Below are positions 2,677 to 23,373 of a stretch of 23,373 nt of DNA, piece after piece. This stretch comes from Opitutales bacterium (GTDB lineage Bacteria > Verrucomicrobiota > Verrucomicrobiia > Opitutales > JABSRG01). Location: assembly GCA_049599475.1 (NCBI GenBank), contig JBMYOQ010000066.1:1-23373 (forward strand), written 5' to 3'. The notes beneath the pieces are model-generated. The model was given only the letters and a program-made list of their open reading frames with translations. It was not told the origin of the DNA and made no database searches. Each line of letters opens with the position of its first letter. Position 1 is the stretch's first letter. A program made the translations under genes and the position numbers.

Positions 2677-2697
2677 ATATGCGTTTGAAATAGAACT

Positions 2698-2765
2698 GGT
2701 AGAACGAACCGTCTTGGTGAGCCGAGTGTTTTGGCTGGCGGCTCACTGAGACGATGCGCCCGACC
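2698..2765. repeat. Inverted doublet of REP-like elements (REPIN-like) between carB and purU
   Basis: 2698-2724 GGTAGAACGAACCGTCTTGGTGAGCCG matches the reverse complement of 2739-2765 (GGTCGGGCGCATCGTCTCAGTGAGCCG) at 20/27. Perfect inner 8-bp stem GTGAGCCG/CGGCTCAC, 14-nt spacer, GTAG at the left outer end. Confidence 0.65.
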
Positions 2766-2771
2766 TATAAT

Positions 2772-5700: not shown

Positions 5701-6008
5701 GCGAGATCCAGAGAAAGATTGAGGCCAGTCTGTCCTCCCAGGGTAGGAAGGAGCGCGTCCGGCTTTTCCTTAGCGATAATCTTTTCAACCACTTCTACGG
5801 TGAGCGGCTCGATGTAGGTAACATCGGCGAACTCTGGGTCCGTCATGATGGTAGCCGGGTTGCTGTTCACGAGAACAACGCGGTATCCTTCTTCTCGAAG
5901 TGCCTTACAGGCTTGGGTCCCAGAGTAGTCAAACTCACAGGCTTGGCCGATCACGATCGGTCCAGATCCAATTATCAAAATGGTTTCAATATCAGTCCGT
6001 TTAGGCAT
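2772..6008 (-). CDS. carB: Carbamoyl-phosphate synthase large subunit
   Basis: 1078 aa; MPKRTDI start, [35 protein letters not shown], second ATP-grasp half [17 protein letters not shown] and [10 protein letters not shown]-terminal MGS-like domain. Confidence 0.99.
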
Positions 6009-6204
6009 GCGTCAGGTCTAGTTTAGAAGGCAAATAGCGGAGGAATAACATTCACGAAAGCGTTAGGCGCAAGCTCTTTCATGAGAATCCCGGGGGGAAT
6101 GGGCATGAAGGGCCATTGCTTGCGAAGCGCTCGGGCCAAAGTCGCTCGCCAAAACGTTAAGCCTTAGCCCTGCATTTAGCTTCCGCCCGGATGCCAGTAT
6201 CTCG

Positions 6205-6229
6205 GTGGCGCTCGTTCTCCGAACGGGCG
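6205..6229. repeat. Single REP-like hairpin in the DUF2062-carB intergenic region
   Basis: GTGG followed by CGCTCGTTC-TCC-GAACGGGCG: 9-bp stem with one non-Watson-Crick (T-G) pair and a 3-nt loop. Confidence 0.4.
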
Positions 6230-6299
6230 GATCTGTGGCCAATTGAGGTCACCAAAAAACAAGCCGGCCTTTGATGGCTAGACCCTCGATGGAGTTGTC

Positions 6300-7037
6300 T
6301 CAAGCGCTCTTCTCTTTTCCCGTGGAGCTGGGCGCCTTAGGTGCTTTTTCCTTCTGTTGTTGGAAGGGCACGAGGGTAAGGCCTGAGCGAGGAATCTTTT
6401 TTATCCCAAACCGGAATCCCGCCTTGTAGAGCTGTGAAAGCACAGTGCCGATTGCGAGGCCGACAACGAAGCCCCCAAGGATTGTCGAGCTGCTCAAGTA
6501 GAGAAGGTTTTCCACTTTGGCCTGTTGTGCGAACTCGATGAGGCTGGAAAGGGAAGACGAGGCCTGCGTGATTTGCTCGTTGATGGCCTCGTCGCCCAAA
6601 GAAGATTCGGGGCGTGCTCCGATAAGCCTGAAGAGAACATCTCCGATTTTATAGGATGCAAAGTAGATCGGAACCATCGTACCCGGATTCGAAATCCACT
6701 GGAGGCCGATCATCACCGGAAGGTTTCCGCGGACGAAGACGGCTAAGAAAAAGGCTGTGAAGATTTGGATCCCTACGATGGGGAGAAAGGCCAAAATGCA
6801 GCCCCAGAAAATGGCATTGGCGACATACTCGGTCTTAAATGACCAGAGGTAGGCGCGCTTGAGGGCAGATTTGTGAAACCACTTGATAACGGGATATCGA
6901 TGCAGGGACGCGCGGCGTGGCAGGTAGCGCAAAATGGCTTTCACCTGTCGGATGCGTTTATGCCTGGCTTTGCGCAGGCGTAGGCGTTCCTGCTGCGTCA
7001 GCGGCGTGTCGTACGTGGCTTGAGGGTCTATTTTCAA
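6300..7037 (-). CDS. DUF2062-family membrane protein (start uncertain; TTG at 7037 preferred over the ORF-track start at 7169)
   Basis: LPRRASLHRYP, YLWSFK..VANAIFWG..AFLPIVGIQ, RGNLP....QWISNPGT..PIY....KIG, and a C-terminal TM helix are the DUF2062 pattern. The upstream extension reads like non-coding divergent-promoter sequence. Confidence 0.75.
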   Translation of the reverse strand: MKIDPQATYDTPLTQQERLRLRKARHKRIRQVKAILRYLPRRASLHRYPVIKWFHKSALKRAYLWSFKTEYVANAIFWGCILAFLPIVGIQIFTAFFLAVFVRGNLPVMIGLQWISNPGTMVPIYFASYKIGDVLFRLIGARPESSLGDEAINEQITQASSSLSSLIEFAQQAKVENLLYLSSSTILGGFVVGLAIGTVLSQLYKAGFRFGIKKIPRSGLTLVPFQQQKEKAPKAPSSTGKEKSA

Positions 7038-8686: not shown

Positions 8687-8849
8687 AGGTCTACGGAGGA
8701 ATCACTAAACTCAATGAAGCGGCCGATGCAATCGAACAATCGGCACCGGTACTGTGGCAGTAATCACTGGGTATTATTTGGGTCTGGGGAAGCGTGTTGA
8801 GGTCTTTGCTTGTTCTCGCACAATGCACTCGGGTATCTTTCCCCCGAAA

Positions 8850-11531
8850 ATGGGCGAGGAATCTCATCATACTCAGCTGTTTACATACTTGCACGATTGC
8901 TACAAGGAAGACTCCTACAATCCTTCTGCGATAGATATCTTTAAGCTGGATTCGGAGGACCGACGGTTGCTGACCGGTGTAGACCATGCGGCAAAAGGGT
9001 TTCCTGAACCCTTGGGCTTGGATAGCGCATTTGCAGAGCGCGTGCGCAAGGCTTTCGCGGAGGCGGACAATGGACTCGAGTTTGTCTATGGGTTTTTATT
9101 TGTTGTGGGTAAGTTTACTGTTCCCGAGGGTAAGACTGTTTCGGTGGCAGCCCCGTTGTTTATGCGGTCTATCACTGAGGATGAGCATGGAGATTTTTAC
9201 CCAAGCGCTGAATTTTCGCTGAATCGAAGTCTGCTCTCGATGCTTTTGCCGGATGGCGAAGAGTCTGCGCTAGCGTTGGAGGAATTCGAATCCATCGTTG
9301 AAGCTAGGGCGGGAAGCCGATTTGAGCGGGTCCCTCTGAGCGGATGGTTAGGGCGATATCTTGAGTTTGTAGATCAAACGGAGCTGGTGAATTTTCCGGA
9401 GTGTATTGAGTCTTTTGATGCGAAGAAAAGGGCCGGTGGTCTGAGTTTGAAATCGTCGTCTGCCGTTTACCTGCAAAAAGATCCTGAATCGAGGCGGGGC
9501 ATCTTGTCGACTCTCCGGAAGCTTTCACGTGGAGAATTGAAGTATTCAGAACCCTTAAAGGCATTTTTAGGAAAATCGTCTCAGTCCCTGAAGTCGATGA
9601 ATGGAAATGACACCTTCTATTTTCGGACACTGAGCGATGCCCAGCTATCTGCTATTAGGAATGCTAAGCGGAATCCGCTAAGTATCGTATATGGGCCACC
9701 TGGTACCGGAAAATCATATACAGCGGCCTCCTTGGCTATTGATCATCTTGCGACGGGAAAATCTGTATTGATTGTCTCTAAGCGAGTGGAGGCGGGAAAT
9801 GTTATTGCTCATAAAATACAGGAAATACTGGGGCAAGACCCTGGGATTATGTACGTCGGCCGGCAGGCAGCATTGGATGCATCTGTAAGCCGCATCGACC
9901 ATATGCTTTTCTCAGAGCCTGCGGACCGAGTGGAGCAGTTGATCACTGCGCGGGCCCAATTCTCAAAAGAGCATCAATTTTTAAATAGGCTTAAAAGAGC
10001 CTTCGGACGTATCGGAAAATTGGAAACGAAAATCGGAGAGCTGGAAGCCGAAGGCTCTATTAAGGGCAAAGTGGCCACACCTTTTTTGAAGGGGACCCTT
10101 TCCTTATTCCCGAAATTGTCATCTGTCTATCAGCGAATGGAAGAGCAGCAGGGTCTGCGAGGCGACAGTCTGAAAGCGCTAATTAACGAATTGGTATCGG
10201 TGAATCAGGCTGATGCGGTCAAAAATTGGGAGTCTTCCCTTCAGTCTTATCGTAAATATATACGCGCTCGAAAACCGCATACCCGCGAGAAATATCGAGA
10301 AGATTGTGACTTTCGAGGCGTGCTCAAAGTATTCCCAATATGGGTCGCCACGTTCAACGATCTCTTTCGCTTTTTCCCCAATCAAAGTGAGCTCTTCGAT
10401 TTAGTGATCATTGACGAGGCGTCACAGTGCGACCTCGCCTCGGCTGTTCCCGCATTGTTGCGGGCTAAAAGGGCAGTGATTTCAGGGGATCCGAATCAGT
10501 TGAGGCATTTTTCATTTCTGTCCTACCGTTTACAGGAGTCTCTGGCAAAGGGAGTCGATACGGAGCAATGGAATTATCGGAACCGGAGTGTTCTCGATCG
10601 AGTGATGGATTTGGACGGCGGGCCAGATACGCGGGTTTTCCTAGATGAGTATTATCGGTCGCCCGAGGCCTTGATATCTTTCAGCAATCGGCGATTTTAT
10701 TCCAACCGTCTTAAGTGTATCCAGAGTTTTCCTGGAACGGCTTCGGGAGAATGCTTTGAGATTGTTGAGGTCGCGGATGCCATCTGGAAAGATGGACGAA
10801 ATGCAAGAGAGGCTTCGGAAATATCTACAGTCCTGGAAGGCATTTTGCAGGGAGACCAGAGTGTTGGAATCATTGCGCCGTTCCAAAAGCAGGTAGATGC
10901 AATCGTTAAGCATTTGGAGTCTGTGAATATACGGGCTGATAAGCTTAAATTGATCGGCACTCCCTATGGGTTCCAGGGAAATGAAGTAGATGTCTTGATC
11001 GTCTCACTGGCCGTAACAGATACAAGCCATCCGAATCTTTGGAGAATTCTGGATCAGCCTAATCTGTTTAATGTCATGATGACGCGGGCAAGGAAGCGAA
11101 TAGTTATATTCAGATCGTTTTCTGAGCATGTTCCTCGGGAGCGCGCGCTCATTAGAGGCTATATCGATCAGATGAAGGCAAGCATCGCCAAGTCCGGCGA
11201 GCCTTGTATCCTACGAGAATCCAAGGCAGTAGGAGGCGACGCTGATCGTCTGCTTGAGGGATTGCGGAAGCGAGGCTACTGCTGCACGGTTGGAGTCGAG
11301 TGGCTTGGCGCCATCATTGATGTAATCGTAGATACGTCTGCGGGGCCGTATGTAATCGATTTGGTTGGGGGTTCGAATAGGTATTTCAAAGTGTTCAGCA
11401 GAGAGCTGTATGAGATTTTATCGCGTGCTGGTATTATTGTAATACCCATATCGATTATCGAGTTTAGAGCGAATTCTGAAGCTGTATTGAAAAATTTGAT
11501 CCAAGGCTTACCGGAACCATTACCGCGTTAG
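8850..11531 (+). CDS. Superfamily-1 helicase (DNA2/NAM7/Upf1-like, AAA_11/AAA_12) with C-terminal restriction-endonuclease-like domain; start uncertain (ATG 8850, ATG 8823 or GTG 8754)
   Basis: Walker A GPPGTGKS, Walker B IIDEASQ, motif III SGDPNQL, LDEYYRS, IIAPFQKQV, GFQGNEVD, motif VI NVMMTRAR; coiled-coil-like insert; C-terminal LRKRGY...IIDVIV...IDLVG...ILSRAG segment. Confidence 0.85.
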   Translation: MGEESHHTQLFTYLHDCYKEDSYNPSAIDIFKLDSEDRRLLTGVDHAAKGFPEPLGLDSAFAERVRKAFAEADNGLEFVYGFLFVVGKFTVPEGKTVSVAAPLFMRSITEDEHGDFYPSAEFSLNRSLLSMLLPDGEESALALEEFESIVEARAGSRFERVPLSGWLGRYLEFVDQTELVNFPECIESFDAKKRAGGLSLKSSSAVYLQKDPESRRGILSTLRKLSRGELKYSEPLKAFLGKSSQSLKSMNGNDTFYFRTLSDAQLSAIRNAKRNPLSIVYGPPGTGKSYTAASLAIDHLATGKSVLIVSKRVEAGNVIAHKIQEILGQDPGIMYVGRQAALDASVSRIDHMLFSEPADRVEQLITARAQFSKEHQFLNRLKRAFGRIGKLETKIGELEAEGSIKGKVATPFLKGTLSLFPKLSSVYQRMEEQQGLRGDSLKALINELVSVNQADAVKNWESSLQSYRKYIRARKPHTREKYREDCDFRGVLKVFPIWVATFNDLFRFFPNQSELFDLVIIDEASQCDLASAVPALLRAKRAVISGDPNQLRHFSFLSYRLQESLAKGVDTEQWNYRNRSVLDRVMDLDGGPDTRVFLDEYYRSPEALISFSNRRFYSNRLKCIQSFPGTASGECFEIVEVADAIWKDGRNAREASEISTVLEGILQGDQSVGIIAPFQKQVDAIVKHLESVNIRADKLKLIGTPYGFQGNEVDVLIVSLAVTDTSHPNLWRILDQPNLFNVMMTRARKRIVIFRSFSEHVPRERALIRGYIDQMKASIAKSGEPCILRESKAVGGDADRLLEGLRKRGYCCTVGVEWLGAIIDVIVDTSAGPYVIDLVGGSNRYFKVFSRELYEILSRAGIIVIPISIIEFRANSEAVLKNLIQGLPEPLPR

Positions 11532-11547: not shown

Positions 11548-14500
11548 CTAGTTCTGCGTGCTGATTTGGAGCCGGAGGAAGAGGGCGTCTAGGGTGTCGT
11601 CTAGGCGGATCGTTTGTTGTTCTATGGGGGTGCCGAAGGTGGTGGTGTATTCGGCAGTGAAGTTGCTGTTTGCGCTCCAGGTCTCGAGGTCGGGAGAGGT
11701 TTGGACTTCGTAGAGGATGTTGGAGTCGTCGGTTCGTATGTTGAAGTTGAGCGCGAAGGGGTCGCTAGAATCGGGCGTAGTGAGAGGGGCTATGGATGCA
11801 TTTGCCACGGTGGGGTCCCAGCCGAAGGCGTATTCCTCGAGGTTGGTGATGCTGTCACCGTCGAAATCTTCATGAAGCCCGCCGATATTGATGCCCCAGG
11901 ATTCTAGCCAGTAATCGGTGAATGTATTGAAATCGTCGGCGCGCGTCCCGACGAAGAATGCGTCGTTTTGGCTTTGCTCCAGTTTGTTGCCATCGCCCGC
12001 CGCTGCATAGAGGTCTGGGTTGTAGAACTCCCAGTCTGCAGGTAGATCTCCGATTGTTTCTGAGGTGTGGCTGCTGTCGTGATTGTCCCAGGCTTCTTGT
12101 GTATTTAGGATAGGGATACGTGCCTCGACAGACCGCATGTAGCTCATGAGGTCTTCGTACAACTCGTCGCCACGAGTCGGGTTTTGCGCATAGATGTTTT
12201 CGTACTCACCTGGGTCGGAGGACAGATCAAAGAGCATTTGGGGTGGAGATTCTGGGTGGAGCAATGGCGCTTCGTAAAAATACATTAGTTTGTCATTCCC
12301 TTGTATTACGCATGAGTGAGGCAATGAGCTGCGATAGTGTGGGTAATGGAAATAGAGGGATCGATTTATGAAGGAGTCTGGCTGCTCCTCGCCTTTCATG
12401 AGGCTTTTAAGGCTGATGCCGTCGATATCTATCAGACGACCTGGGTCGCCTCCCGCCCAATCCAAAAATGTCGGGAGCAGATCATAGATCGCAACATTCG
12501 CGGTAGATAGGGAGCCGGGGGAAATGCCTGGCCCTGTCGCGAACATGGGGACGCGGATGCCGCCTTGCCAGACCCACCATTTTCGCATGTGAAGGGGCTG
12601 CTGGTATTCAGGGCGTATGTCTTGGAAGAAGCCGTGATTGAAGCCATTGTCAGACATTACCACTACATAGGTGTTGTCGCGGATGCCGAGTTCGTCCAGT
12701 TTGTTGTAAACGCTAGCAATATGGCCATCGAGCTCGTAGAAATTAGCGAGCCATGATGCGGGGTCGCGCCGATAGCCGATCGTATCTTTATCTATGCCTT
12801 CACGATTGTAGTAGTCATATGTTTCCTCAAGGTAGTCTTGGAACATTCTCCAGGTGTCCTCGAAACACTCTTGGCCGTTGTGGACGGCGTAGTGGGAAAG
12901 CTGAACATAAAATGGATTTCCAGAATTGTGCTGCGCTTCCATGAAGTCCATTGCGCCGGTGGTGATGTGATTCATGAGCTTTGGGTCCACGATCACTGAG
13001 AGATCCCTGTCGCCGTTTTCGTCTCTGGTTACGGTTTGGCCAGGGCTGTTTGAGGTATTCCCGTCATGAAGCAGGTAGCCTTCCTCGCCCGGGTCGCCTC
13101 CGGCGTGCCATTTGCCGAGGTGAGCACTGCGATAGCCCAAAGGTTCCAGGGCTTCCGGTATGGTCGTGAATTGGGGCCGCAGACTTCCTGTGGAAACGTT
13201 CGCGAGAACCGGGTAGCCATGGCTGTCGAATCTGAAATATCCATCTGAAGGACCGCCGACTACGGTGAATCGGTTGCGCGCACCGGTAGTGCCTGTCTGA
13301 AGTGAGGCACGGGCGGGCCCGCATTGTGGAGAAGAGAATGCATTGCGGAAGATCATACCCTCGCTTGCCATCCGATTCAGGGTGGGCATCGATACGATCT
13401 CGGGGACCCCCGAGTTTAGCATGCGATCGTCCATGAGGACGGGAGATCCGTTCCAAGCCCAATCGTCTACAAGGATCATGACAATGTTTGGCGGTGCGTT
13501 CCATGTGTATAGTAGCTCCTCGCGAATTTCGGTGAAGAGCTCGGAATCAAGGGCACTGTCGTAGATGCGGACCTCGCCAACAATGCCGCTAAGAAATTGG
13601 CTGGCCTCATCAATGCTTCCCAGGGTCACACGGTTGCTTGTCGAAAAATCGCGTTTTGCTATGCTGGCACTGACGACCTCATAGTTTTTGGATTCCCAGA
13701 GTTCGAGGGTTTCAGAAACTGCGTCGTATCGTAGTGCGATCACGATGCTATCTCCCGCCTCAATGTTACGGTATGTCGGAGACTCGATACTGGTATCAGC
13801 GACCCGAGCTCGGATCGATCCCTGATCAGTCAGGCTGATCTGCAGGCCGTTGGAACCGTCGGTGGAGTTGCCCAGAATATCATTCAATACTCCTGGGACT
13901 ATCTGATCGCTTTTGATTGTGAGGAAAATGGAGAAACCATCAGTGCCGCCCGATTGGTTCAACCAGGCATCTGAATTGGAAGGCCTGAATAGGCGCAGGC
14001 TATTTGCGGAGCTCCCGAAATCGACTCCAGCTTTGCCCGAAGGGAAGGTGAAGGCACTGTCCGAGTAGTAGAATACGCTTCCTGAGCCCGTGTAGTCTGC
14101 CGCGTTATTGCCGGAAAGACTTGAGTCCGGCCACTGTGCGACGAGGCCATCAGGGGCTTCATCGGCATTGAGCTCTTGTATGGGACTGGGTTGTTGGGGT
14201 GTGGCATCGACTTCTGCGCTCAAAGCACTGGTTTCGCCGTTGGTGCTGAGGGCACTTACCGCGTAGTAGTAAGTGACTCCATTTTCGGGGGTGTCGTCGA
14301 TGTAGTCGCTGGTGAGGGATGTGCCTATAGCGTCGTCACTGGATGCCGGTGACGATGTTGATCGATAAATGGTATACGACTCGGCCGCGTTGTTTGAATC
14401 ATCATTCCAGTCGAGACTGACTGTGGAGACTCCCGCTATGGCACTCAAATTTTGGGGTGTTTCGGCCGCTCCTAAGAAGGCGATCTCGAGGGTCATCGTA

Positions 14501-15096
14501 TCGAGCCGACCCTGGCCAGCGAGGGCGAATTGGTCCCCGTCTGAAATGGTTATATTGCCGTCCCAGAACTCTCCGGTGTTGATACGTTCCCCGGCACCAG
14601 GATTGCCGGGCGTACCGACGAGCCTCCAGAGCTGCGCGCTGCTGTTGTCTAAACTAAGGGCGCGGATGCTAAGCTCTTCATTGGGGTCCAGGTTCAAACT
14701 GCTGAGATCAAAGGTCCATAGAATCGCTTCGCCGCCCTCTACCCGGCCGACACCACCGTCGCTGATACCGAGGCCGCTACTGTTTCCATTTACCGGATGA
14801 AGAGTGCCACCGGTCCAGGTGTCCCCATCCCAGTCAGATGATACGTCATTCCTGCCTTCGATGATAATGGAAAACGCGCCGTCTCCAGAATCTCCATCGC
14901 GAAATGAACCCGTGAGTCCGGGAATATCCCCTGAGCCATCAGTTGTCGATGCCGAGGGACTATTCAGGTTCGAAATTTGGGTGGTGTATTTCGAATTGTT
15001 TGGCTGGATATTCCCGCTCGGGGAAAAATCGATAACAAGCTCTGCGTTCAAGGTGTGTACGACGAAGCAGGCGCACGTGAGGGTAATGCGATTCAT
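11548..15096 (-). CDS. Secreted modular S1 (formylglycine-dependent) sulfatase with FN3 and LamG-like domains and a C-terminal putative surface-sorting module (ATG 15096; ORF-track TTG at 15105)
   Basis: Signal peptide MNRITLTCACFVVHTLNA; FN3 (PQNLSA...LDWND...YTIYRS...TYYYAVSA); LamG-like (FLSGIVGEVRIYDSAL); sulfatase PNIVMILVDD, CGPAR (CxPxR, Cys codon 13321-13323), LGKWH, MSDNG, GGIRVP, LFDLSSDPGE; tail DFDGD..NLEEYAFG.DP...YEVQTSPDLETW...FLRL. Confidence 0.88.
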   Translation of the reverse strand: MNRITLTCACFVVHTLNAELVIDFSPSGNIQPNNSKYTTQISNLNSPSASTTDGSGDIPGLTGSFRDGDSGDGAFSIIIEGRNDVSSDWDGDTWTGGTLHPVNGNSSGLGISDGGVGRVEGGEAILWTFDLSSLNLDPNEELSIRALSLDNSSAQLWRLVGTPGNPGAGERINTGEFWDGNITISDGDQFALAGQGRLDTMTLEIAFLGAAETPQNLSAIAGVSTVSLDWNDDSNNAAESYTIYRSTSSPASSDDAIGTSLTSDYIDDTPENGVTYYYAVSALSTNGETSALSAEVDATPQQPSPIQELNADEAPDGLVAQWPDSSLSGNNAADYTGSGSVFYYSDSAFTFPSGKAGVDFGSSANSLRLFRPSNSDAWLNQSGGTDGFSIFLTIKSDQIVPGVLNDILGNSTDGSNGLQISLTDQGSIRARVADTSIESPTYRNIEAGDSIVIALRYDAVSETLELWESKNYEVVSASIAKRDFSTSNRVTLGSIDEASQFLSGIVGEVRIYDSALDSELFTEIREELLYTWNAPPNIVMILVDDWAWNGSPVLMDDRMLNSGVPEIVSMPTLNRMASEGMIFRNAFSSPQCGPARASLQTGTTGARNRFTVVGGPSDGYFRFDSHGYPVLANVSTGSLRPQFTTIPEALEPLGYRSAHLGKWHAGGDPGEEGYLLHDGNTSNSPGQTVTRDENGDRDLSVIVDPKLMNHITTGAMDFMEAQHNSGNPFYVQLSHYAVHNGQECFEDTWRMFQDYLEETYDYYNREGIDKDTIGYRRDPASWLANFYELDGHIASVYNKLDELGIRDNTYVVVMSDNGFNHGFFQDIRPEYQQPLHMRKWWVWQGGIRVPMFATGPGISPGSLSTANVAIYDLLPTFLDWAGGDPGRLIDIDGISLKSLMKGEEQPDSFINRSLYFHYPHYRSSLPHSCVIQGNDKLMYFYEAPLLHPESPPQMLFDLSSDPGEYENIYAQNPTRGDELYEDLMSYMRSVEARIPILNTQEAWDNHDSSHTSETIGDLPADWEFYNPDLYAAAGDGNKLEQSQNDAFFVGTRADDFNTFTDYWLESWGINIGGLHEDFDGDSITNLEEYAFGWDPTVANASIAPLTTPDSSDPFALNFNIRTDDSNILYEVQTSPDLETWSANSNFTAEYTTTFGTPIEQQTIRLDDTLDALFLRLQISTQN

Positions 15097-15227
15097 GGGG
15101 GACAACGGGGAGGGTGGTGAATAGGGTCCGAGTAAACACCTAGCAAAAATACGGCTTTTGTAAAACGTATATTCGTTGTCCTGGTCGCTTATTTTATAGA
15201 TTTATACCTAGGCGACAGTTGGTATTT

Positions 15228-16094
15228 CTAGCGCGCCAAAAACGCCTTTAAAATGCGATCAGCGGAGTAACCAAGTAAGAAATAAATGACTCCAGTGATG
15301 ATCCATATCTCGAAAATGCGGCTATTGGAGTTGGCGATATCTTGGGCGGCGAAGGTCAGATCGTGGACCGAAATGAGAGAGAGGATGGCGGTATTTTTGA
15401 GGATAGACACAACACTATTCCCCATGGGGAGTCGGATGATTTTGAGCAATTGGGGAATCAATACAAAGCGCAGCGTTTGGATGCTATTCATGCCCAGGGA
15501 GCGCCCCGCTTGCTCTTGGCCCGGAGGAATGCCTTTTAAGCCACCCCGTACGATTTCTGTAATGAAAGCTCCCTCGATAATCGAGAGGGCAATGATTCCA
15601 GAAAGCATGTATTCAAAGGCATCGGGTGAGGCGAAAATGAGCTTCCGCAGGCTTCCCTCGTCGAGCCATTCGGTGAATGTGTTGAGGGGCAGGAGTGGAA
15701 TCAGTTGGCCTGTGAGGAAGAAGTGAAGGATGAAAATGGATACAAGGGGTGGTAGGTTGCGCAAAGTGGCTACGTAGGCGGTGCTCAGGACCCGCAGACT
15801 CGTTGAATTGGAAGCATGTGAGAGGCCGCCGATGAAGCCGAGGATGCTTGCCAGTAGGACAACGCAAAGGGTAATTTTAAGCGTGTTTAATATCGTTGAG
15901 GCGTAGAATGAAAGGCCTCCGAAAGATTCATTGGGATCACTGATCCACTCCCAGGCCTTGGCCCAGTCCCAATCGTAATTAAATGAAGTAAACGCATGTA
16001 GTAGAAACCAGGATACAGCTCCAACAATAACAAGCAGGACCGCGCAGTCTAAGATGCGAAACCGAGGTGTCACGGTATCGGGTGCGTGGCTCAT
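15228..16094 (-). CDS. Polar amino-acid ABC transporter permease (ATG at 16094 chosen to avoid overlap with the binding-protein gene)
   Basis: YDWDW, NTLKIT, YVATLRNLPPLV, EGAFITEIVRGG, GQEQAGRSLGM (EAA loop), ILKNTAILS; multiple TM helices. Confidence 0.9.
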   Translation of the reverse strand: MSHAPDTVTPRFRILDCAVLLVIVGAVSWFLLHAFTSFNYDWDWAKAWEWISDPNESFGGLSFYASTILNTLKITLCVVLLASILGFIGGLSHASNSTSLRVLSTAYVATLRNLPPLVSIFILHFFLTGQLIPLLPLNTFTEWLDEGSLRKLIFASPDAFEYMLSGIIALSIIEGAFITEIVRGGLKGIPPGQEQAGRSLGMNSIQTLRFVLIPQLLKIIRLPMGNSVVSILKNTAILSLISVHDLTFAAQDIANSNSRIFEIWIITGVIYFLLGYSADRILKAFLAR

Positions 16095-16131
16095 TCTGGA
16101 CAGGAGGGATTGGGTGAATTGGGCGGTTGCG

Positions 16132-16911
16132 CTATTCTTTCCAGTCGAGGGTGCGGAACCAGTAGTCGCGCCGCTCTTTGAGCCAGCCGTCTGCTTTGCG
16201 AGCCTCAATCCACGTGTTGAAAATTTCGATACTCTCGCTGTCTCCTTTGGAAAATGCCATTCCCTCATTTCCTTCAAATAGCATATTATCGAAGGGGAGG
16301 AATAGGGTGTCAGCGTGCTCCACGCTTTGGTGCTCTGGTTTGGGGCTGGAGGCCAAGGCTGCATGGGCGCGTCCATTGAGGACCTCTTGGAAGGCCTGGC
16401 TGTCGTCGTCGAACTGGCGTAGGCGGGCCTTGGGCATCAATTCCTTGGCAGCTTTGGCCGCGGTGGTTCCGCGTCGGGCGCTTAAGGTGACGCGGCGACT
16501 GTTGAAGTCTTCGATCGTTTTGAGGTCCTTAGCTTTCTCTTTGTGAGCTGCGAGTTGAACGCCGCCTTGCGCATAGGGAATGGAAAAATCTACGGTCTTC
16601 TGGCGCGCTTCGGTAATTGTCATGCCGCCGATAATCACATCGAACTTTCCTGCAATGAGTGCTGGGATAATGCCGTCCCAGGCTGTGGGTATGAATTGTA
16701 TTTCCAGGTCGTGATCGGCGGCGAATCGGGTAGCTAGGTCTATTTCAAAACCGATAAGATCGCCTGCCTTGTCGCGCATCGCCCAGGGCACAAAAGTCGA
16801 CATGCCAACGCGGATTGTGCCGCGCTCTGTTATTTTTTCCCAAAGCTCTTGAGCATGGATGGGGAGCGCGCAGAGAGCGATTGTGGCGAGAACTAAGAAT
16901 TGTTTAATCAT
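16132..16911 (-). CDS. Polar amino-acid ABC transporter substrate-binding protein (SBP_bac_3)
   Basis: Signal peptide; RGTIRVGMSTFVPW, LIGFEIDLA, TAWDGIIPALIAGKFDVIIGGMTITEAR..VDFS.PY. Confidence 0.93.
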   Translation of the reverse strand: MIKQFLVLATIALCALPIHAQELWEKITERGTIRVGMSTFVPWAMRDKAGDLIGFEIDLATRFAADHDLEIQFIPTAWDGIIPALIAGKFDVIIGGMTITEARQKTVDFSIPYAQGGVQLAAHKEKAKDLKTIEDFNSRRVTLSARRGTTAAKAAKELMPKARLRQFDDDSQAFQEVLNGRAHAALASSPKPEHQSVEHADTLFLPFDNMLFEGNEGMAFSKGDSESIEIFNTWIEARKADGWLKERRDYWFRTLDWKE

Positions 16912-16972
16912 GACTTTGGATTTTTAGAAAGGAATGGCGAATGATATTCCTCAGATTCAAGAATTGGGCAAA

Positions 16973-17728
16973 TTAGGTCTTTAGACGTTTCTCCAAGAAA
17001 ATAGCGGTTGTAGAAAGGGGAACAGTGATGAGCAGATAGAGGGCCCCGACGGTGAGCCAAATTTCAAAGCTCATAAATGTATCGGCAATGATATCTTTGC
17101 CCTCGGTGACCAGTTCGAAAATTGCGATGGCTGAGAGGAGGGCGGAGTTCTTAATCAAATTGACAGCCTCATTGGTAATGGCCGGAAGGACGATCCGGAC
17201 GGCTTGCGGCAAGAGGACGCGAATGAAAACGATTAGAGGTGGAAGTCCCAAGCTCTCGGCAGCCTCTTTTTGTCCTTTAGGGATACTGTCGAGGCCGCTT
17301 CGATAAATCGGTGCGAGATAGGCCGCATGAAAGGCAGATAGTGAGAGGACTGCTACCCAGAAGCGGTCGATGTCTAAAATAGGCCCGAGGATGAAGTAGG
17401 TGATGTAAAGCTGAACCAGTAGCGGCGTATTCCGCACGCAGGTGAAAAAGGTTTCGGCGGGGATGCGGACACTCCAGGTGTGGTGGGTGCGGGCGAAGGC
17501 CAAGATGAGTCCGCATAGGAGGGCGGCAATCAGACTTAGGCCGCTGATTTTAAGCGTTTCTATGATGCCGTAAAGAAGCGGTCCCATGAACCATTCACCT
17601 TCATCTTGTTCGGCGATGTATTGGGGGACTTCATTCCATTGCCAAGTGTAGTCCAAGCGGGACGCTCCCAGCACTATGAGCGCGAGCAGGGTCCCTAAAA
17701 TAATGATGCTTGGCGCGAACCTCCTCAT
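16973..17728 (-). CDS. Polar amino-acid ABC transporter permease (likely start ATG 17728; ORF track 17779)
   Basis: YTWQW, GPLLYG..ETLKIS, RNTPLLVQLY, GQKEAAESLGL (EAA loop), LPQAVR, NLIKNSAL. Confidence 0.9.
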   Translation of the reverse strand: MRRFAPSIIILGTLLALIVLGASRLDYTWQWNEVPQYIAEQDEGEWFMGPLLYGIIETLKISGLSLIAALLCGLILAFARTHHTWSVRIPAETFFTCVRNTPLLVQLYITYFILGPILDIDRFWVAVLSLSAFHAAYLAPIYRSGLDSIPKGQKEAAESLGLPPLIVFIRVLLPQAVRIVLPAITNEAVNLIKNSALLSAIAIFELVTEGKDIIADTFMSFEIWLTVGALYLLITVPLSTTAIFLEKRLKT

Positions 17729-17859
17729 TGGCTCATGCATTCCGTTGAAAGTTCTGAATAGGCGGCGATGACCCCGCATGAGCGCTGTGTCTCATAACTC
17801 GCTAAGGCTTCATGTCTATTCACGTCCATGGATGGCAAATTTTTTAAGTCTTCGAGCGC

Positions 17860-18618
17860 CTAATGTCTGAGGATGCGGCTGAGGAAATCCTGGGCGCGCG
17901 CGGATTCGGGTTGTTCGAAAAAGGCGGTCGGGTTGCGATCTTCGATGATTTCCCCCTTGTCCATGAAGATGACACGGTCGGCAACTTCTCGGGCGAAGCC
18001 CATCTCGTGGGTCACGCTGATCATCGTCATCGACTCTTGCGCTAGGGAGCTCATTACATCGAGCACTTCGGCGATCATCTCGGGGTCGAGGGCCGAAGTG
18101 GGCTCGTCGAACAACATCACCTTGGGCTTCATGCACAGGCTCCGTGCGATGGCGGCGCGCTGTTGTTGTCCACCCGAAAGTTCTCTGGGGTATTTGTGGG
18201 CTTGGTCGGCGATCTTCACCCGGTCCAGGAGTTCCATGGCCTGGGCCTGCGCTTCGGCTTTGGAGAGTTTTCTCACCTGGGTGGGAGCCAAGGTAAGGTT
18301 TTGCAAAATAGTCAGATGGGGAAACAGGTTAAACTGCTGGAAGACCATTCCAATCTCGCGCCGCGTGTGCGAAATGTTTTTGGGATTTGGCCAGATTTGC
18401 TCACCGTTGGCATAGATGGACCCTTTTTGAGGCGCCTCGAGGAGATTCATGCAGCGGATTAAGGTGGATTTCCCTGAGCCTGATGGCCCACACACCACAA
18501 CGCGCTGACCATCGGGGATAGACAGCGAAATATCTTTGAGGGCATGGAAGTCCCCGAACCACTTATCTACGTGTTCAAGCTGGATTGCAGGGGCTGCAGA
18601 TCTTGGTGACTCCTCCAT
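17860..18618 (-). CDS. Polar amino-acid ABC transporter ATP-binding protein (GlnQ-like; likely start ATG 18618)
   Basis: Walker [21 protein letters not shown], signature LSGGQQQR, Walker [15 protein letters not shown]-loop VTHEMGFA. Confidence 0.95.
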
Positions 18619-18645
18619 GAGATACAACAAAGCTGGGCGATTGCC

Positions 18646-18680
18646 AAATCCCAAGAACCAAATCGGAAATCCCAGAAACC
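18646..18680. promoter_or_regulatory. Imperfect 14-bp direct repeat upstream of the ABC operon, possible operator
   Basis: AAATCCCAAGAACC (18646-18659) and AAATCCCAGAAACC (18667-18680), 12/14 identical, 21-bp period. Confidence 0.3.
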
Positions 18681-18690
18681 GTGTGGGAGT

Positions 18691-19020
18691 CTAGCTTTTG
18701 GATTCGGGATCTGAGGTCTGAGATTTCAATGCCTTCAGCTCCTCGGGCTTGAGCTTTCTTTTGATATTGTCGAGACGCGGATGGTCGAAGGGTATCATGG
18801 GGCTGATCACGAGCAGGTTATTGCTCTTTTGGACCTGGGTGAGCATGCCAGCGCCCGTGTAGCCGCGGATATACCAGTGCGTGCCCGAATAGGCATCGCC
18901 GGCTTCCTCGACGATTTCTGTGACACAGAGTATCTTGATCTGGCTGTCGTGTTTACCGGCTCGCGTAGAAAGGGCGAGGATGTCGCCTACGCAGATAATG
19001 CGGTCCATGATGTCTTGCAT
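18691..19020 (-). CDS. Hypothetical small cytoplasmic protein
   Basis: 109-aa ATG ORF that fills the gap between the chemoreceptor and the ABC operon on the same strand as both; no family recognised. Confidence 0.6.
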   Translation of the reverse strand: MQDIMDRIICVGDILALSTRAGKHDSQIKILCVTEIVEEAGDAYSGTHWYIRGYTGAGMLTQVQKSNNLLVISPMIPFDHPRLDNIKRKLKPEELKALKSQTSDPESKS

Positions 19021-19078: not shown

Positions 19079-20731
19079 CTAAGCAGTTTCTGTGGAGCGT
19101 GATTTAGAAGTAATCAGAGACTCTAGGCTACCCACCATATTCTCGAGGCGTTCGGTCTCCGTGATGAGGCTCGTCGCGCATGAGTTGGTGCGCTGGGCGA
19201 GGGATGCATTCTCGTCGGTTTGTTGGGAAATGTCGCCTAGGAGTGCGGTAAACGGGGTTAAGCGGGTGTCCTGCTCTCGGCAGAGATCTACGATGTAGGC
19301 GGCGGCAGATTTTACTTCCTCGATCTGTTGGGTAATGGTCTCGAATGCGGCTTCAACTTTGAGAAAGGTCCTGCGCCCGTCCTCTGCATTTTGAATATTT
19401 TCGGTAATTTGTTGCTCGGCTTCGTCGGCTGCTGTCGAGGCGTGTAATGCCAAACTCCTGACTTCTTCGGCCACAACAGAAAACCCTTGGCCAGCCTCAC
19501 CCGCGCGTGCTGCTTCCACGGCGGCATTGAGAGCCAGCAGATTGGTTTGGAAAGATACTTGATTGATACGCTCGGCGATACCTTGCACTGAAGTGCAGCC
19601 TTTTTCTATGCGATCCATGGCTGTCCTTAAATCACCGATACAGAGGGAACCTTGCTCGACTTGTTGAGAGACTACCTGGCTGGCATCATTGACCTTCGAT
19701 GTTTGGTCTTGGTTTTTCTGAACGATTTCAGTGATGTGCCCGATTTGATCCGTAAGGTGGTTCACGGCATCATTCGTTTTTTGCGATGCAGTGGAAAGGT
19801 TTTCTGAGAGCTCTAGGACGGTGCCGCCGGTCTGGGACATGGTATTGCCGGCATCGTCAATGGTCCCGACTGCTGACTTGAGGCCTCTGTTTATATATTT
19901 TCCTGCAACGACCCCAATGATCAGGCAGAGTAAAAAAAGGCAGGCGTTGGTGTAGAGCAGATTTGCGAGATTGTCCCTGAGTAGGGCCTCGCTCTCTTCG
20001 AGGGAGTGGACGAGATACAGGTTTGCGTTACCGACACCTGGGATTTCGCCAATGGAAAAGGACCTGTAGCGATAGAGTGGGCTGGGCGACTGGATATCAA
20101 ACTGTGTAGTAGATTGCCCAAGGATATGGCCTCCGACTTCGATTATCGCGGAGACATTGGAGGCCTCGGCAATTCTGGTGGCCAGTGTATTATCGTAGGA
20201 CTTCGCCGCGACGAGTACGCCAGTCGGGTCGCTTGGGTCTCCTATGGGTTTGGCGATCGCACGAACAAGGGCACCATCAACTATGATTTTGGAACACAGT
20301 GTCTCGCCTTCAAGAGCTGCTTCCACGATGCCCTGGACTTCGGGTTTATCCGCCATGATTTCTGAAATGCCGGCTGATGCTATGAACTCCCCGTAGAAAT
20401 CGTAACAGTCTACAATATCTATTGAAAATTGCTTGGACAAGGGGCCGAGTGAATCGACGATGGTTGCTGGGTCGCCGCTATCGATCACGGAGACCGTCAA
20501 TGGCAGCATGCTGAAAATGTCTGCGTCTTTCTCCAGAGTTTGAGAAGCGGAGTCTAGAAAATAGCGTGCTGTTACCTCCGCGCTGTCGAGGGTGCTTGTG
20601 GCATTGGTTTCGTTTTGACTCTTGGAAGATGTAATGGATTGCCATGACACACCTGTTGAAATAATACCTACAGTCGCGAAGATCAGAAAAGCGATTTTTG
20701 ACTGAATGGTCCTGAGGCGTGATGCGATCAT
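19079..20731 (-). CDS. Methyl-accepting chemotaxis protein with periplasmic (Cache-like) sensor domain
   Basis: TM1 ([16 protein letters not shown]), about 225-aa extracytoplasmic region, TM2 ([15 protein letters not shown]), hairpin tip [35 protein letters not shown]. Confidence 0.93.
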
Positions 20732-20778
20732 AGATGTGTGTGGTTGGCGAGGCTCGGTATTTTGAGTTCAGCGCTCTA

Positions 20779-21348
20779 TTATAAATCTGTATTTTTGTAG
20801 TCGAAGTAAGTGTGAAATAAGAAGTCGCGGTGTTCTACGCCGTTGTGGCATTGGATGCATTGAGTAAAGGCTGCTTGATAATTTCCACGAAAGCTATCGA
20901 AGAGCACTTCACCTTCGGGTGTCGCCTGGACGTATCGCCATTGTCCTGTTTGCATTTTATGCATGAATGTTACGTCAACGAGCTTGGAGCTGCCATCTTC
21001 CCGGATCTCGATGCTCGATTTAGCGATGAGCGTATCTGGAGCATACATTTTGAAACCGCCCGCTTCTTCGATCTCGAATTCATCCGCTCCCTGGGTTTCT
21101 AGCCGTTCTAGCTTATAATTATGTCCGAACGTTTCGATGGCTTCGTATTCACGAATATAGGAGGCGATGGTCTTGTTCCAATGAAGCGTCGAGGGACGTT
21201 CTTCGATTATTTTGTGCCATGATTTATATTCGCGCAGCCAGGTTTCGATTTCGCTGAGGGGTTTATCCGTTGTTTTTGCGCTGGGTGCACTGCATCCCCC
21301 GGCGACAAGCGCTAGAATCGTGATAATGATGGGCAGTGCTTTATTCAC
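20779..21348 (-). CDS. Cytochrome P460 / c'-beta family monoheme cytochrome, probable lipoprotein (GTG start)
   Basis: Lipoprotein-like leader ending LVAGGC19; YKSW; YAPDTLIAK110; FMHK...WRY; C-terminal CIQCH (C164-H168, nt 20845-20859) followed by DFLF. This is the motif order of the P460 fold. Confidence 0.72.
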   Translation of the reverse strand: MNKALPIIITILALVAGGCSAPSAKTTDKPLSEIETWLREYKSWHKIIEERPSTLHWNKTIASYIREYEAIETFGHNYKLERLETQGADEFEIEEAGGFKMYAPDTLIAKSSIEIREDGSSKLVDVTFMHKMQTGQWRYVQATPEGEVLFDSFRGNYQAAFTQCIQCHNGVEHRDFLFHTYFDYKNTDL

Positions 21349-21361
21349 CAGAAATTTCCCT

Positions 21362-21985
21362 CTAGTCGAAGGTGAGTTCTAAAGACCCATAGGTCTTCCC
21401 CTTGCGCGTAAGGTCGATTGTTTTGCTTTCGCCGGGTGCGATGTCTACAACTGCGCTGTCGAAGCGAGGGATCCACACCTTGATGCTTTGGGCCTCTGCA
21501 GGGACACCTTCTAGGCTAACTTCTTTGTTGAGCTCACCCTTGGCAAATTCGGCAACAGCTACATGTTGGGATTTCAAGTTTCCCACCCAAAGACGCATTT
21601 TGGGATGAATTTTGCAGCCGACGGAAATGAATGTATTGTCCGACCAGTTTACGTCCATGTCGGCGCTGTTGCCTGGATCGCTTAGTTTGGAGTCGAACTC
21701 GATTCCGGCGGCTGAATCACTCGCGAAGACGTTGTGCTGTACGGTATCTGAATTGTCGAAGGTGATCTTTGAGCCCGCGGGCGCGATCACGATATTTTCC
21801 GAAAACTCCTTATTGACCTGGTTGACTCGAATTGTCACCGGCTCGACTTCCTTATCGGATTCGATATAGATGATCGAGGCTTCTGGTGCGCGTTTGGTAT
21901 ACGAAAATACGCCTTTGATGGTATTTGTACCGTAGGCGAGGTTTGCGCAAAGGAGTAGTGCCAAGGTGCTGATATGGTGTTTCAT
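21362..21985 (-). CDS. Exported cupredoxin (type-1 copper; family often annotated 'methylamine utilization protein')
   Basis: Signal peptide; Q..KEF...IV...GSKITFDNSD...H84NVF and C124-K-I-H127-P-K-M130 give a full His/Cys/His/Met ligand set; extra C-terminal beta domain (IKVW). Confidence 0.82.
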   Translation of the reverse strand: MKHHISTLALLLCANLAYGTNTIKGVFSYTKRAPEASIIYIESDKEVEPVTIRVNQVNKEFSENIVIAPAGSKITFDNSDTVQHNVFASDSAAGIEFDSKLSDPGNSADMDVNWSDNTFISVGCKIHPKMRLWVGNLKSQHVAVAEFAKGELNKEVSLEGVPAEAQSIKVWIPRFDSAVVDIAPGESKTIDLTRKGKTYGSLELTFD

Positions 21986-22011
21986 CGGACAGTATGATTG
22001 GGTTAACGTTT

Positions 22012-23025
22012 CTATTTAGAAGCTACCGATACATCTACAACTGGACCTTCAGGAATTTCGGGGCGCTCGATGGTGACTGGATCTGTGAGCGCTCCCATGA
22101 ATGCGACGAGTGCATAAATCTCCTCTTCGGAAAGATTTAGCTTTTTGACGAGTGCACTCTTGTTCTTTTCGTCAGGCCCGCCGCCTTGGTTGTAGAAGCG
22201 GACGACATCCTCTAGGGTCTTTTCTGAGCCGTCATGCATGTAGGGTGCACTCAGAATGATATTGCGTAGGCCTGGCGTCTTGAACGCACCCGGGAGGGAT
22301 TGTACGATATCGCCGCGACCGTTGTCGCCGTTGTCGATGCCGAGGTTATGAAAACTCTCGTCGGTGAAATTGGGTCCGCTATGGCAATCGATGCACTGGG
22401 CTTTGCCTTTAAATAGCTCGAGGCCGTGAGCGGCTAGGGGGCTCATTGCGGATTTGTCTCCGGCAATGTAGCGATCAAATGCAGAATTATCAGAAATGAA
22501 CGTGCGCTCAAATGCGGCGATAGCCTTGCCAATATTTTCTAAGGTAACGCCATCTGGATAGATTTTAGTAAAAGCTTCCTGATAGTAGGGGACGGCTCGA
22601 ATACGCGCTTCAGCCTTAGGGCCGGGCATGTTCATCTCGCCCTCGGCCTGAATGGGACCGATCGCCTGCTCCTCGAGTGAACCCGCACGACCATCCCAGA
22701 AGAAGGTAGTTCCCCACGCGAGATTGTAGAGGTGCGGCGCGTGACGGCCGAGTTTATTGTCCATCGTGCCCTGGCCGAATGCAACGCCATCGCTAAACCC
22801 GAGTTCTGGGTTGTGGCATGTTGCGCATGACATGTCGGCGTTGAGAGACAGCCGATTATCGAAAAATAGAAATTTACCCAGCTCTATTTCCTCTGGGGAG
22901 TGGGGTTCCCAGTCGGGATATTCTATGTCGCTCCGATCTGGGGTTCCAAGATCAGCGGCATGCGATATCGCGCAGGACGCGATTAGAGCTAGTATGCTCT
23001 GAAGGATACGGGATTTTTGATTCAT
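22012..23025 (-). CDS. Diheme cytochrome c peroxidase/MauG superfamily protein, MauG-type
   Basis: Signal peptide; LGKFLFFD.RLS, CATCH (67-71), FFWDGRA, EQAIGPIQAEGEM, CIDCH (211-215), FKTPGLRN, APYMHDGS...VVRFY278, LVAFM.ALT. Confidence 0.93.
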   Translation of the reverse strand: MNQKSRILQSILALIASCAISHAADLGTPDRSDIEYPDWEPHSPEEIELGKFLFFDNRLSLNADMSCATCHNPELGFSDGVAFGQGTMDNKLGRHAPHLYNLAWGTTFFWDGRAGSLEEQAIGPIQAEGEMNMPGPKAEARIRAVPYYQEAFTKIYPDGVTLENIGKAIAAFERTFISDNSAFDRYIAGDKSAMSPLAAHGLELFKGKAQCIDCHSGPNFTDESFHNLGIDNGDNGRGDIVQSLPGAFKTPGLRNIILSAPYMHDGSEKTLEDVVRFYNQGGGPDEKNKSALVKKLNLSEEEIYALVAFMGALTDPVTIERPEIPEGPVVDVSVASK

Positions 23026-23131
23026 ACAGCAAATTGCAATGGGTTTTGAGGTCCTTCAGCAGCGAGAAATGTATGAATGGAAATCGCGGACTGTACTGTT
23101 ATCTTTAGGCCATTTTCGATTAACAATGAAT

Positions 23132-23160
23132 TTTCTAACGTTTAATTTCGATGGTTTCAA
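23132..23160 (-). promoter_or_regulatory. Candidate sigma70-type promoter for the MauG-cupredoxin-P460-MCP cluster
   Basis: Minus strand reads TTGAAA-N17-TAGAAA in AT-rich intergenic DNA about 105 nt upstream of the ATG at 23025. The -10 element is weak (lacks the final T). Confidence 0.3.
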
Positions 23161-23373
23161 TCGAGTCGCTATTCACCCTCCTGGGTGTTTAAGAGATATC
23201 GAATTGGAGGCAGATAGTGTAAAATAATTGTTTCTAAATCCCCAAAGTGCGCCTGGGCTCCCAGCATTTTAGCTATTTTGCCAGGTTTTTAGGCCGAATA
23301 TACCTGGGGTCCCGCAGTTATAATCTTTTATGAAGCGTCCAGTATTCTCCCCAAATTTGTTTCCTTTTAAGCG

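Follow-up and report, generated by a model that had tools for sequence, protein, structure and literature searches.

Dihaem cytochromes c of the MauG kind are known from MauG with preMADH, MbnH with MbnP, and BthA (structures 3l4m, 6e1c and 6nx0; PMC6405878 and PMC11951088, each as partly available), which are alike in a six-coordinate haem with Tyr/His ligation, distal Gln, Pro and Glu residues, a Trp between the haems and an adjoining gene for a candidate partner. Such a combination is predicted for an operon at positions 19079-23025 of the sequence considered here, a contig of an Opitutales bacterium (JBMYOQ010000066.1, 23,373 nucleotides (nt)), which is referred to in its entirety as the window. 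Its four genes specify a dihaem enzyme, a cupredoxin, a haem protein of cytochrome P460 fold and a methyl-accepting chemotaxis protein (MCP), and it differs from the MauG and MbnH pairs in that the partners are the cupredoxin and the P460-fold protein, that the clade of its dihaem is tied to membrane receptors, and that the genome has no match to MauA or MbnP. Cytochromes P460 and c'-beta (6amg, 2je2, 6hiu, 7ead; the available part of PMC11928373) resemble the third product in fold, in a C-terminal CxxCH and in the position of the cross-link Lys, and NsP460 also shares with it the lack of a distal carboxylate. However, solved P460s have a Phe or Arg cap, whereas the operon protein has Trp at the capping register, an invariant neighbouring His, a hydrophobic Arg44/His80 register and a helical acidic insertion, and it is found in lineages of motile heterotroph type, beside receptors and not in a nitrifier context.

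Sensing by way of a partner protein is exemplified by a solute-binding protein working with a chemoreceptor. A separate, co-encoded cofactor protein, with interchangeable outputs, is also a feature of H-NOX or NosP with diguanylate cyclases or kinases (PMC8846402, as partly available), and the co-component systems (listed under PMC9214523) are placed in the same group. The operon differs from these in being periplasmic, in having three metalloproteins, an oxidising enzyme among them, and in serving two unrelated receptor input folds. Another parallel in layout is an uncharacterised cluster of DUF3034, a group-1 truncated haemoglobin, a 'methylamine utilization protein' and an EAL protein, in which a haem protein is again present and the cupredoxin family likewise directly precedes a sensor of dCache_3 type, though the globin and DUF3034 replace the dihaem and P460 proteins and its cupredoxin is of another subfamily (21-28% identity). 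The NO sensors of the sCache_heme type (DUF3365/Tll0287; the accessible portion of PMC12889525) also couple an extracytoplasmic haem c to Cache-type signalling, with the haem inside the Cache domain itself, whereas the Cache domain of the window has no CxxCH.

All four genes are on the minus strand. Positions 22012-23025 encode the dihaem cytochrome c (337 amino acids (aa)), a member of the bacterial cytochrome c peroxidase (bCcP)/MauG superfamily of Tyr/His (MauG/MbnH) type, with two CxxCH and a PF03150 (CCP_MauG) match of 194.7 bits against a cut-off of 25.6; positions 21362-21985 encode a 207-aa protein whose metal ligands and model show a type-1 cupredoxin domain inserted in a beta-sandwich; positions 20779-21348, with a GTG start, encode the 189-aa monohaem P460-fold protein, of an S-x-L-H-W subfamily and assigned by fold match; and positions 19079-20731 encode the 550-aa MCP (MCPsignal, 102.7 bits), with a dCache_3/CHASE4-like periplasmic domain. 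A first-pass annotation from the letters alone had described four co-directional genes with gaps of 26, 13 and 47 nt and intact metal sites, and the open reading frame (ORF) coordinates and motifs confirm this (the dihaem has two CxxCH, the cupredoxin H84/C124/H127/M130 and the P460-like protein one CxxCH). Export signals of the products were assigned by eye and hydropathy. That the four genes form a functional unit is very probable, and sequence comparison makes a strong genomic case that the module is real, conserved and apparently undescribed; its mechanism is offered as a proposal. Full-text literature searches, whose coverage mostly excludes subscription journals, turned up no account of the operon or of the cupredoxin-Cache pair, and the available parts of PMC11481889 (Hmr pathway), PMC8717448, PMC11904497 and PMC2474590 hold nothing relevant to the module.

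Conservation of the trio and its linkage to a sensor, which the annotation had put forward as the check on its proposal, is borne out. When genomes, one for each species, were scanned with an alignment of ten P460 sequences, 151 places were confirmed, and the best 80, which were kept, comprise 27 full-length subfamily loci (L055-L081) and 53 other P460-family proteins, cleanly separated in score; the scan is based on exact peptide patterns and so undercounts, kin loci are not independent, and two loci are from one metagenome-assembled genome. The order dihaem, cupredoxin, P460-like protein is present in 23 of the 27, and a dihaem or cupredoxin in none of the 53 controls. Three of the exceptions (L056, L057, L069) are truncated at contig starts, with the cupredoxin still visible in two, and the fourth, L075, stands alone, though elsewhere its genome holds a complete MCP-dihaem-cupredoxin-P460 unit (L253). 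A membrane sensor adjoins the triad or its P460 gene in 25 of the 27 loci, being directly downstream of the P460 gene in 22 (16 MCP and six GGDEF proteins), with one MCP upstream of the dihaem, one divergent kinase before the dihaem and one cut dCache_3 protein; the swapping of the sensor slot among outputs that had been predicted is thus seen, with MCP, GGDEF and kinase types. The two remaining loci have a cut unclassified membrane protein (L080) or none (L075). Of the 42 controls whose P460 gene is followed by 1.5 kb or more of sequence, none has a gene for an MCP, a GGDEF protein, a kinase or a cyclase in the first 1 kb (the short contig L082 does); the flanks of many control loci are short. 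By record titles the carriers are Gammaproteobacteria in the majority, Planctomycetales, Fibrobacteria, Lentisphaeraceae, Opitutales, Acanthopleuribacter and SAR324, and those with species names are Shewanella olleyana, S. gaetbuli, Pleionea sediminis, Litorivivens lipolytica, Algibacillus agarilyticus and Acanthopleuribacter pedis; the unit has a GGDEF output in S. olleyana and L. lipolytica and an MCP in P. sediminis and A. agarilyticus. Pairwise distances of the three proteins are positively correlated over 23 loci (rho 0.24-0.55), and no use is made of this since shared ancestry explains it. The SAR324 genome (L075, L253-L256) carries, in addition to the full unit and the lone P460 gene, another clade-like dihaem, whose cupredoxin is divergent, and two more cupredoxins of operon type, one of them before a Cache-cyclase.

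The receptor of the window has the signalling domain of an MCP and transmembrane helices at residues 13-31 and 258-276, with no HAMP match. Its periplasmic domain scores 14.2 bits for dCache_3 (PF14827; cut-off 25.7), against 35.2 for the homologous domain of L079, and has homologues in the sensors of five other operons (E 1e-9 to 2e-19). By sequence this MCP is a part of the module, since a profile of 15 cupredoxin-adjacent sensor domains picks it alone (E 3e-8) from the 16,821 ORFs of the genome, which has 15 further MCP-like ORFs along with seven CheW-domain and eight flagellin matches. Over the operon receptors the input domains are of two unrelated folds, 24 being double four-helix bundles and six dCache-like, with four others unclustered; the dCache_3-like type is that found here and the four-helix type that of gammaproteobacteria. 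The four-helix domain, of ~285 aa with invariant N-x-P-A, R, G and W-x-x-D, is common to MCP and GGDEF outputs, while in 19 sequences of the dCache family only a G and a P reach 90% and there are no invariant pocket residues. Comparison of both sensor-domain profiles with solved structures gave nothing under E 0.04, the best being the LytS sensor 5xsj (E 0.049).

The most constant companion of such receptors is the cupredoxin. The Copper-bind match is slight (E 0.007), and the fold is confirmed by a predicted model (pLDDT 93) with Z 11.8 to amicyanin 1aac and 12.6 to 4hcf, the cupredoxin domain occupying residues ~49-137. H84, C124, H127 and M130 are invariant (26 of 26), with an amicyanin-spaced loop C124-x-x-H127-P-x-M130, and on fold and His/Cys/His/Met ligands the protein is a type-1 cupredoxin; databases label it 'methylamine utilization protein'. 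Among 48 listed cupredoxin places 20 were examined, and every one has a related periplasmic-domain sensor, directly downstream in 19, with no dihaem or P460 match in any; seven of these 20 loci were held out of the sensor-domain profile, which matches all seven. The outputs of these pairs are a class III cyclase, a histidine kinase or a Ser/Thr kinase, to which plasmid matches add GGDEF-EAL (two of the three read also have DUF3034 and a truncated globin), and an operon-type cupredoxin is paired with a Cache sensor at L254 with no haem partner. Because the pair occurs without a haem partner in 20 of 20 loci, a cupredoxin and a Cache receptor are, as gene neighbourhoods have it, the minimal unit, to which haem proteins would have been added. 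A 400-440-aa protein without a Pfam match recurs beside cupredoxin and kinase pairs (L039:9734-11005, L041:9531-10790, L042:4202-5407, L045:5519-6850, L048:4401-5633, L255:3105-4358) and at a guess is an outer-membrane barrel. In Thalassomonas a 604-aa protein without a Pfam match (L257:4323-6137), with two CxxCH and a C-terminal operon-type cupredoxin domain, precedes genes for a molybdopterin oxidoreductase and DmsC/4Fe-4S.

The assignment of the dihaem to the MauG/MbnH type, which the annotation had made, is upheld by Tyr278, which aligns with Tyr294 of MauG and the corresponding Tyr of MbnH at a position where canonical bCcP has Met; with Tyr278 invariant (23 of 23), the protein falls outside canonical bCcP, whose six-coordinate haem is Met/His. 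Gln120, Pro124, Glu130 and His215 are also kept in all 23 operon dihaems and Trp110 in 22, Gln120, Pro124 and Glu130 corresponding to the peroxidatic pocket and Trp110 to the inter-haem Trp, as these residues are placed in MauG (in part after PMC6405878). The residues needed for MauG-like chemistry (Tyr, Glu130, Trp110) are thus in place, and bis-Fe(IV) chemistry is predicted. The Tyr ligand is required for bis-Fe(IV) in BthA and MauG (PMC6405878, in its accessible part). The protein is neither MauG proper (TIGR03791, 267.7 bits against a cut-off of 443.85, with no mauA or mauB adjoining in the window or the scanned related loci) nor MbnH proper (TIGR04039, 228.1 against 362.85, with no adjacent mbnP). 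Of the usual contexts, which had been said to be absent, MbnP (PF20243) does lack a match in the 96.6% complete genome, in a search whose control responded; MauA (PF02975) and the HAO families also gave no match, there with a control set that was silent for both. Matches to solved structures are weak (~168 bits to bCcPs, 133 to MbnH and 79 to MauG), and for the C-terminal haem region the best is MbnH (6e1c, E 1e-10).

What distinguishes the window dihaem is an acidic N-terminal extension and a motif Y100-N-L-A-W104, Tyr100 being present in 30 and Trp104 in 29 of 31 operon dihaems, versus 5-8% of 61 outgroup dihaems. When a dihaem alignment was used as a reverse anchor against metagenomes, the best 80 of 384 confirmed places included six complete units (L135, L137, L138, L139, L141, L156; L139 duplicates L060), two triads truncated by the ends of their contigs and, as uninformative places, the short or broken contigs L142, L143 and L146. 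Operon dihaems group with those of a sensor-linked sister group in a single clade (FastTree support 0.95), of which Tyr100 and Trp104 are characteristic; the sister group also has members on the short contigs L149 and L150. In the sister group, two near-identical contigs (L144 and L145; region L144:623-5220) have a natural dihaem-cupredoxin fusion of 569 aa, followed by a 928-aa dCache_1-HAMP-GAF-PAS-adenylate cyclase. The 61 other dihaem loci, many with short flanks, have no P460 gene, a cupredoxin-like neighbour in eight and a kinase within 2.5 kb in three. Other dihaem clades that adjoin cupredoxin-like genes are represented by L165, L171, L172, L209, L173 and L153-L155, with no Tyr at the sixth-ligand position in the dihaems of L153 and L155. 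A SulP/STAS transporter gene follows the sister-clade dihaem in L148 and L151, and plasmid matches of the dihaem (43-47%) are from Rhizobium. The host genome has a second CCP_MauG-family dihaem (C16:73124-74815, 563 aa, Tyr-type, with a long N-terminal extension) and about ten very large proteins with dihaem-like regions.

The third product was annotated as a cytochrome P460-like lipoprotein, of which the first half holds. Its Cytochrome_P460 match of 22.7 bits is below the cut-off of 27, and the model confirms the P460/c'-beta fold, a beta-sheet fold with C-terminal CxxCH (Z 12.8 and root-mean-square deviation 2.8 over 120 aligned residues to 7ead, 11.4 to 6hiu, next unrelated Z 4.7). The lipoprotein part is weakened, the lipobox-like AGG-C19 being unconserved and any such motif present in only two of 35 operon homologues. 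In 97 pooled subfamily sequences (that of the window, 34 from loci and 62 of 73 other representatives, restricted to 170-260 aa), Ser53, His56, Trp57, Asn77, Lys110, Met129, Trp137 and the CxxCH are invariant. Lys110 corresponds to the cross-link Lys106 of NsP460, which makes it the candidate residue for such a cross-link, and its invariance separates the subfamily from cytochromes c'-beta, where Phe, Met or Leu replaces it. At the position of the distal carboxylate, Thr127 aligns with Ala131 of NsP460 and the column holds T 71, S 12, A 8, N 2, V 2 and F 1 (96 of the 97 sequences), lacking the Glu or Asp that active P460 enzymes carry (PMC11928373 Table 2, part of the source available). Since this carboxylate is missing and NsP460, which also has none, is inactive (same source), hydroxylamine oxidation is unlikely on alignment grounds, and the turnover of hydroxylamine suggested by the annotation is weakened accordingly. 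In an ungapped sequence register obtained through a second P460 branch, and not by structural superposition, the cap is Trp57 (97 of 97), matching Phe76 of NsP460, and the Arg44/His80 register is V, I, M or F (97 of 97), Ile61 of the window matching His80 of NsP460, the Arg44 equivalent. Mutation at the capping and Arg44-equivalent positions blocks self-maturation in Nitrosomonas P460 (PMC11928373, same part), and the subfamily appears to carry both maturation-blocking changes naturally yet retains the Lys.

As a working model, periplasmic H2O2 would react with the Tyr/His dihaem to give a high-valent, bis-Fe(IV)-type state, as family chemistry suggests; the type-1 cupredoxin, to judge from the fusion and gene order, would be its one-electron partner and be oxidised during peroxide turnover; and the periplasmic domain of the receptor might read the redox state of the cupredoxin or a turnover product, as the two-gene cupredoxin-Cache units hint. 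The P460-fold protein would be a haem partner that does not oxidise hydroxylamine, serving as the protein substrate of the enzyme or as a second input whose ligand is NO or something similar, and the output would be the chemotaxis pathway here and cyclic di-GMP, cAMP or a kinase elsewhere. That three exported metalloproteins feed the adjoining receptor as a periplasmic oxidant-sensing input is evenly poised between right and wrong; a signal of oxidant or redox type is somewhat probable, and the specific wiring from dihaem to cupredoxin to receptor is tentative, at its strongest a balanced call. Several observations weigh against this model. Sister-clade dihaems are found directly after an MCP with no adjacent cupredoxin or P460 gene (L147, L148 at 2634-6758, L151, L152), and from their pairing with MCPs alone it follows that parts of the module are separable. 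All four periplasmic parts encoded in the window are acidic (isoelectric points 4.2-5.3). The input fold varies while the triad is fixed, which a diffusible signal fits better than one conserved protein contact, and the invariant polar residues of the four-helix domain (N, R, W, D) look like a small-ligand pocket. The strict methylation consensus is in none of 23 operon MCPs versus seven of 14 other MCP-like proteins of the genome, a weak hint that adaptation may be non-classical, with classical adaptive chemotaxis not assured. Complex prediction for the cupredoxin and the MCP periplasmic domain (score 0.28, mark 0.32) is evidence neither way.

The alternative that survives best, though unlikely, is that the dihaem chiefly modifies the P460-fold protein, by forming its haem-Lys110 cross-link or oxidising Trp57/His56, as MauG does with preMADH and MbnH with MbnP, and that the matured protein binds the true ligand, an N-oxide such as NO or NH2OH, and reports it either directly or by way of the cupredoxin. 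The invariant Lys110 behind a constant Trp cap and hydrophobic register would suit such a role, since an oxidant acting from a distance would get round the block to self-maturation; long-range oxidation of partner proteins is known from MauG-family enzymes (PMC11951088, as partly available), and the clade-specific Tyr100 and Trp104 could be hole-hopping sites. However, Tyr100 (8 of 8) and Trp104 (7 of 8) are retained in the sister clade, where no P460 gene was seen next to the dihaem, and this reading loses ground because the motif is held without that neighbour; furthermore, it is to the cupredoxin and not to the P460 protein that the dihaem is fused, the Lys is also kept in P460 branches that have no dihaem, and the cap assignment is one of register. 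In its fullest form, also doubtful, the dihaem would mature in trans, by long-range hole hopping, a P460 haem-Lys cofactor that, Trp-capped and lacking the Arg, would be unable to mature itself, and the covalent mark or high-valent state would be relayed via the blue-copper protein to the chemoreceptor or cyclase. If true, this would be an enzyme-made P460 cofactor, of which no description was found, and a signalling system in which periplasmic protein-cofactor chemistry keeps a record of exposure to peroxide.

With a comparably low probability, the triad detoxifies or converts a periplasmic substrate and the receptor itself binds the substrate or product with no metalloprotein contact. Cache and four-helix domains are usually small-molecule binders, which favours it. 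So do the service of the same triad by two unrelated input folds, the pocket-like residues of the four-helix domain and a weak match to the NIT (nitrate/nitrite-sensing) domain (24.6 bits, cut-off 24.9) just downstream of a sister-clade dihaem (L150:1141-1749). Yet the cupredoxin accompanies a Cache sensor with no enzyme at all in the 20 loci examined, and the dCache family has no invariant pocket. Copper sensing or handling, in which Cu occupancy of the cupredoxin is the signal and the dihaem builds the Cu site as MbnH does in MbnP, is quite improbable: the match of the C-terminal haem region to MbnH and the constancy of the cupredoxin as partner of the sensor speak for it, but H/C/H/M is the classical type-1 electron-transfer set, there is no WxW motif in the window partners and no MbnP match in the genome, and no copper-transport gene was recognised in the subset of neighbours scanned. 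That the genes cluster by chance, or that the MCP has nothing to do with the trio, which the rarity of the unit among kin and its lower third-position GC might suggest, is already refuted by gene order conserved across distant lineages and by the module-specific periplasmic domain of the MCP.

The operon provides a testable context for Tyr/His dihaem enzymes outside mau and mbn clusters, for P460s without the carboxylate and for the widespread cupredoxins that bear the label 'methylamine utilization protein'. A metalloprotein relay with exchangeable outputs is suggested as the means by which periplasmic oxidants are read in marine and sediment bacteria, possibly an unstudied route by which extracellular oxidants are sensed and swimming or biofilm behaviour is steered. 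Carriage by named species makes genetics and biochemistry feasible, and the natural Trp cap together with the invariant Lys makes P460 cross-link formation in vivo directly testable.

In the host genome (4.68 Mb) the operon is likely a horizontal acquisition, and perhaps a recent one, by composition and distribution: GC at third codon positions (GC3) is lower in its four genes (0.51-0.60) than in five neighbouring genes (0.62-0.71), and no full-length relative of the P460-like protein was found in 40 relatives or in 400 other genomes of the phylum, four genomes having only ordinary C-terminal P460 matches. The cupredoxin family is matched in 37 of 401 phylum genomes, its own included. In a database of 90% clusters the P460-like protein matched only itself and the cupredoxin two relatives, and single-protein searches of viral contigs gave no matches. 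One RNA run (5% of words shared) yielded one identical 266-nt contig piece, which falls within the dihaem gene, along with three partial matches that are unrelated, and is uninformative. The 348 nt 5' of the dihaem gene (23026-23373, minus strand), which extend to the contig end, had been annotated as AT-rich and promoter-like. The first stands, with GC 0.41 against 0.525 for the whole window; the second has this composition in its favour, the promoter scan having found no sigma70-like site there. Promoter and terminator scans gave matches at chance level only.

Downstream of the MCP is a 109-aa ORF (18691-19020, minus strand) with no family match and a GC3 of 0.71, unlike the operon, and then genes for a polar amino-acid ABC transporter (ATPase, permease, binding protein, permease; 15228-18654, minus strand). 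The transporter was considered as a ligand donor and dropped, nothing similar having stood out beside the 27 related loci (ORF lists, with some neighbours family-scanned). Further away, a 1185-aa ORF (11548-15105, minus strand) has a sulfatase domain from residue 539 and no Pfam match in its N-terminal half. A 925-aa superfamily 1 (SF1; Upf1-like) helicase (8754-11531, plus strand), in a lower-GC stretch near a Sir2 gene, has sub-threshold matches to the anti-phage helicases ProA and Hhe.

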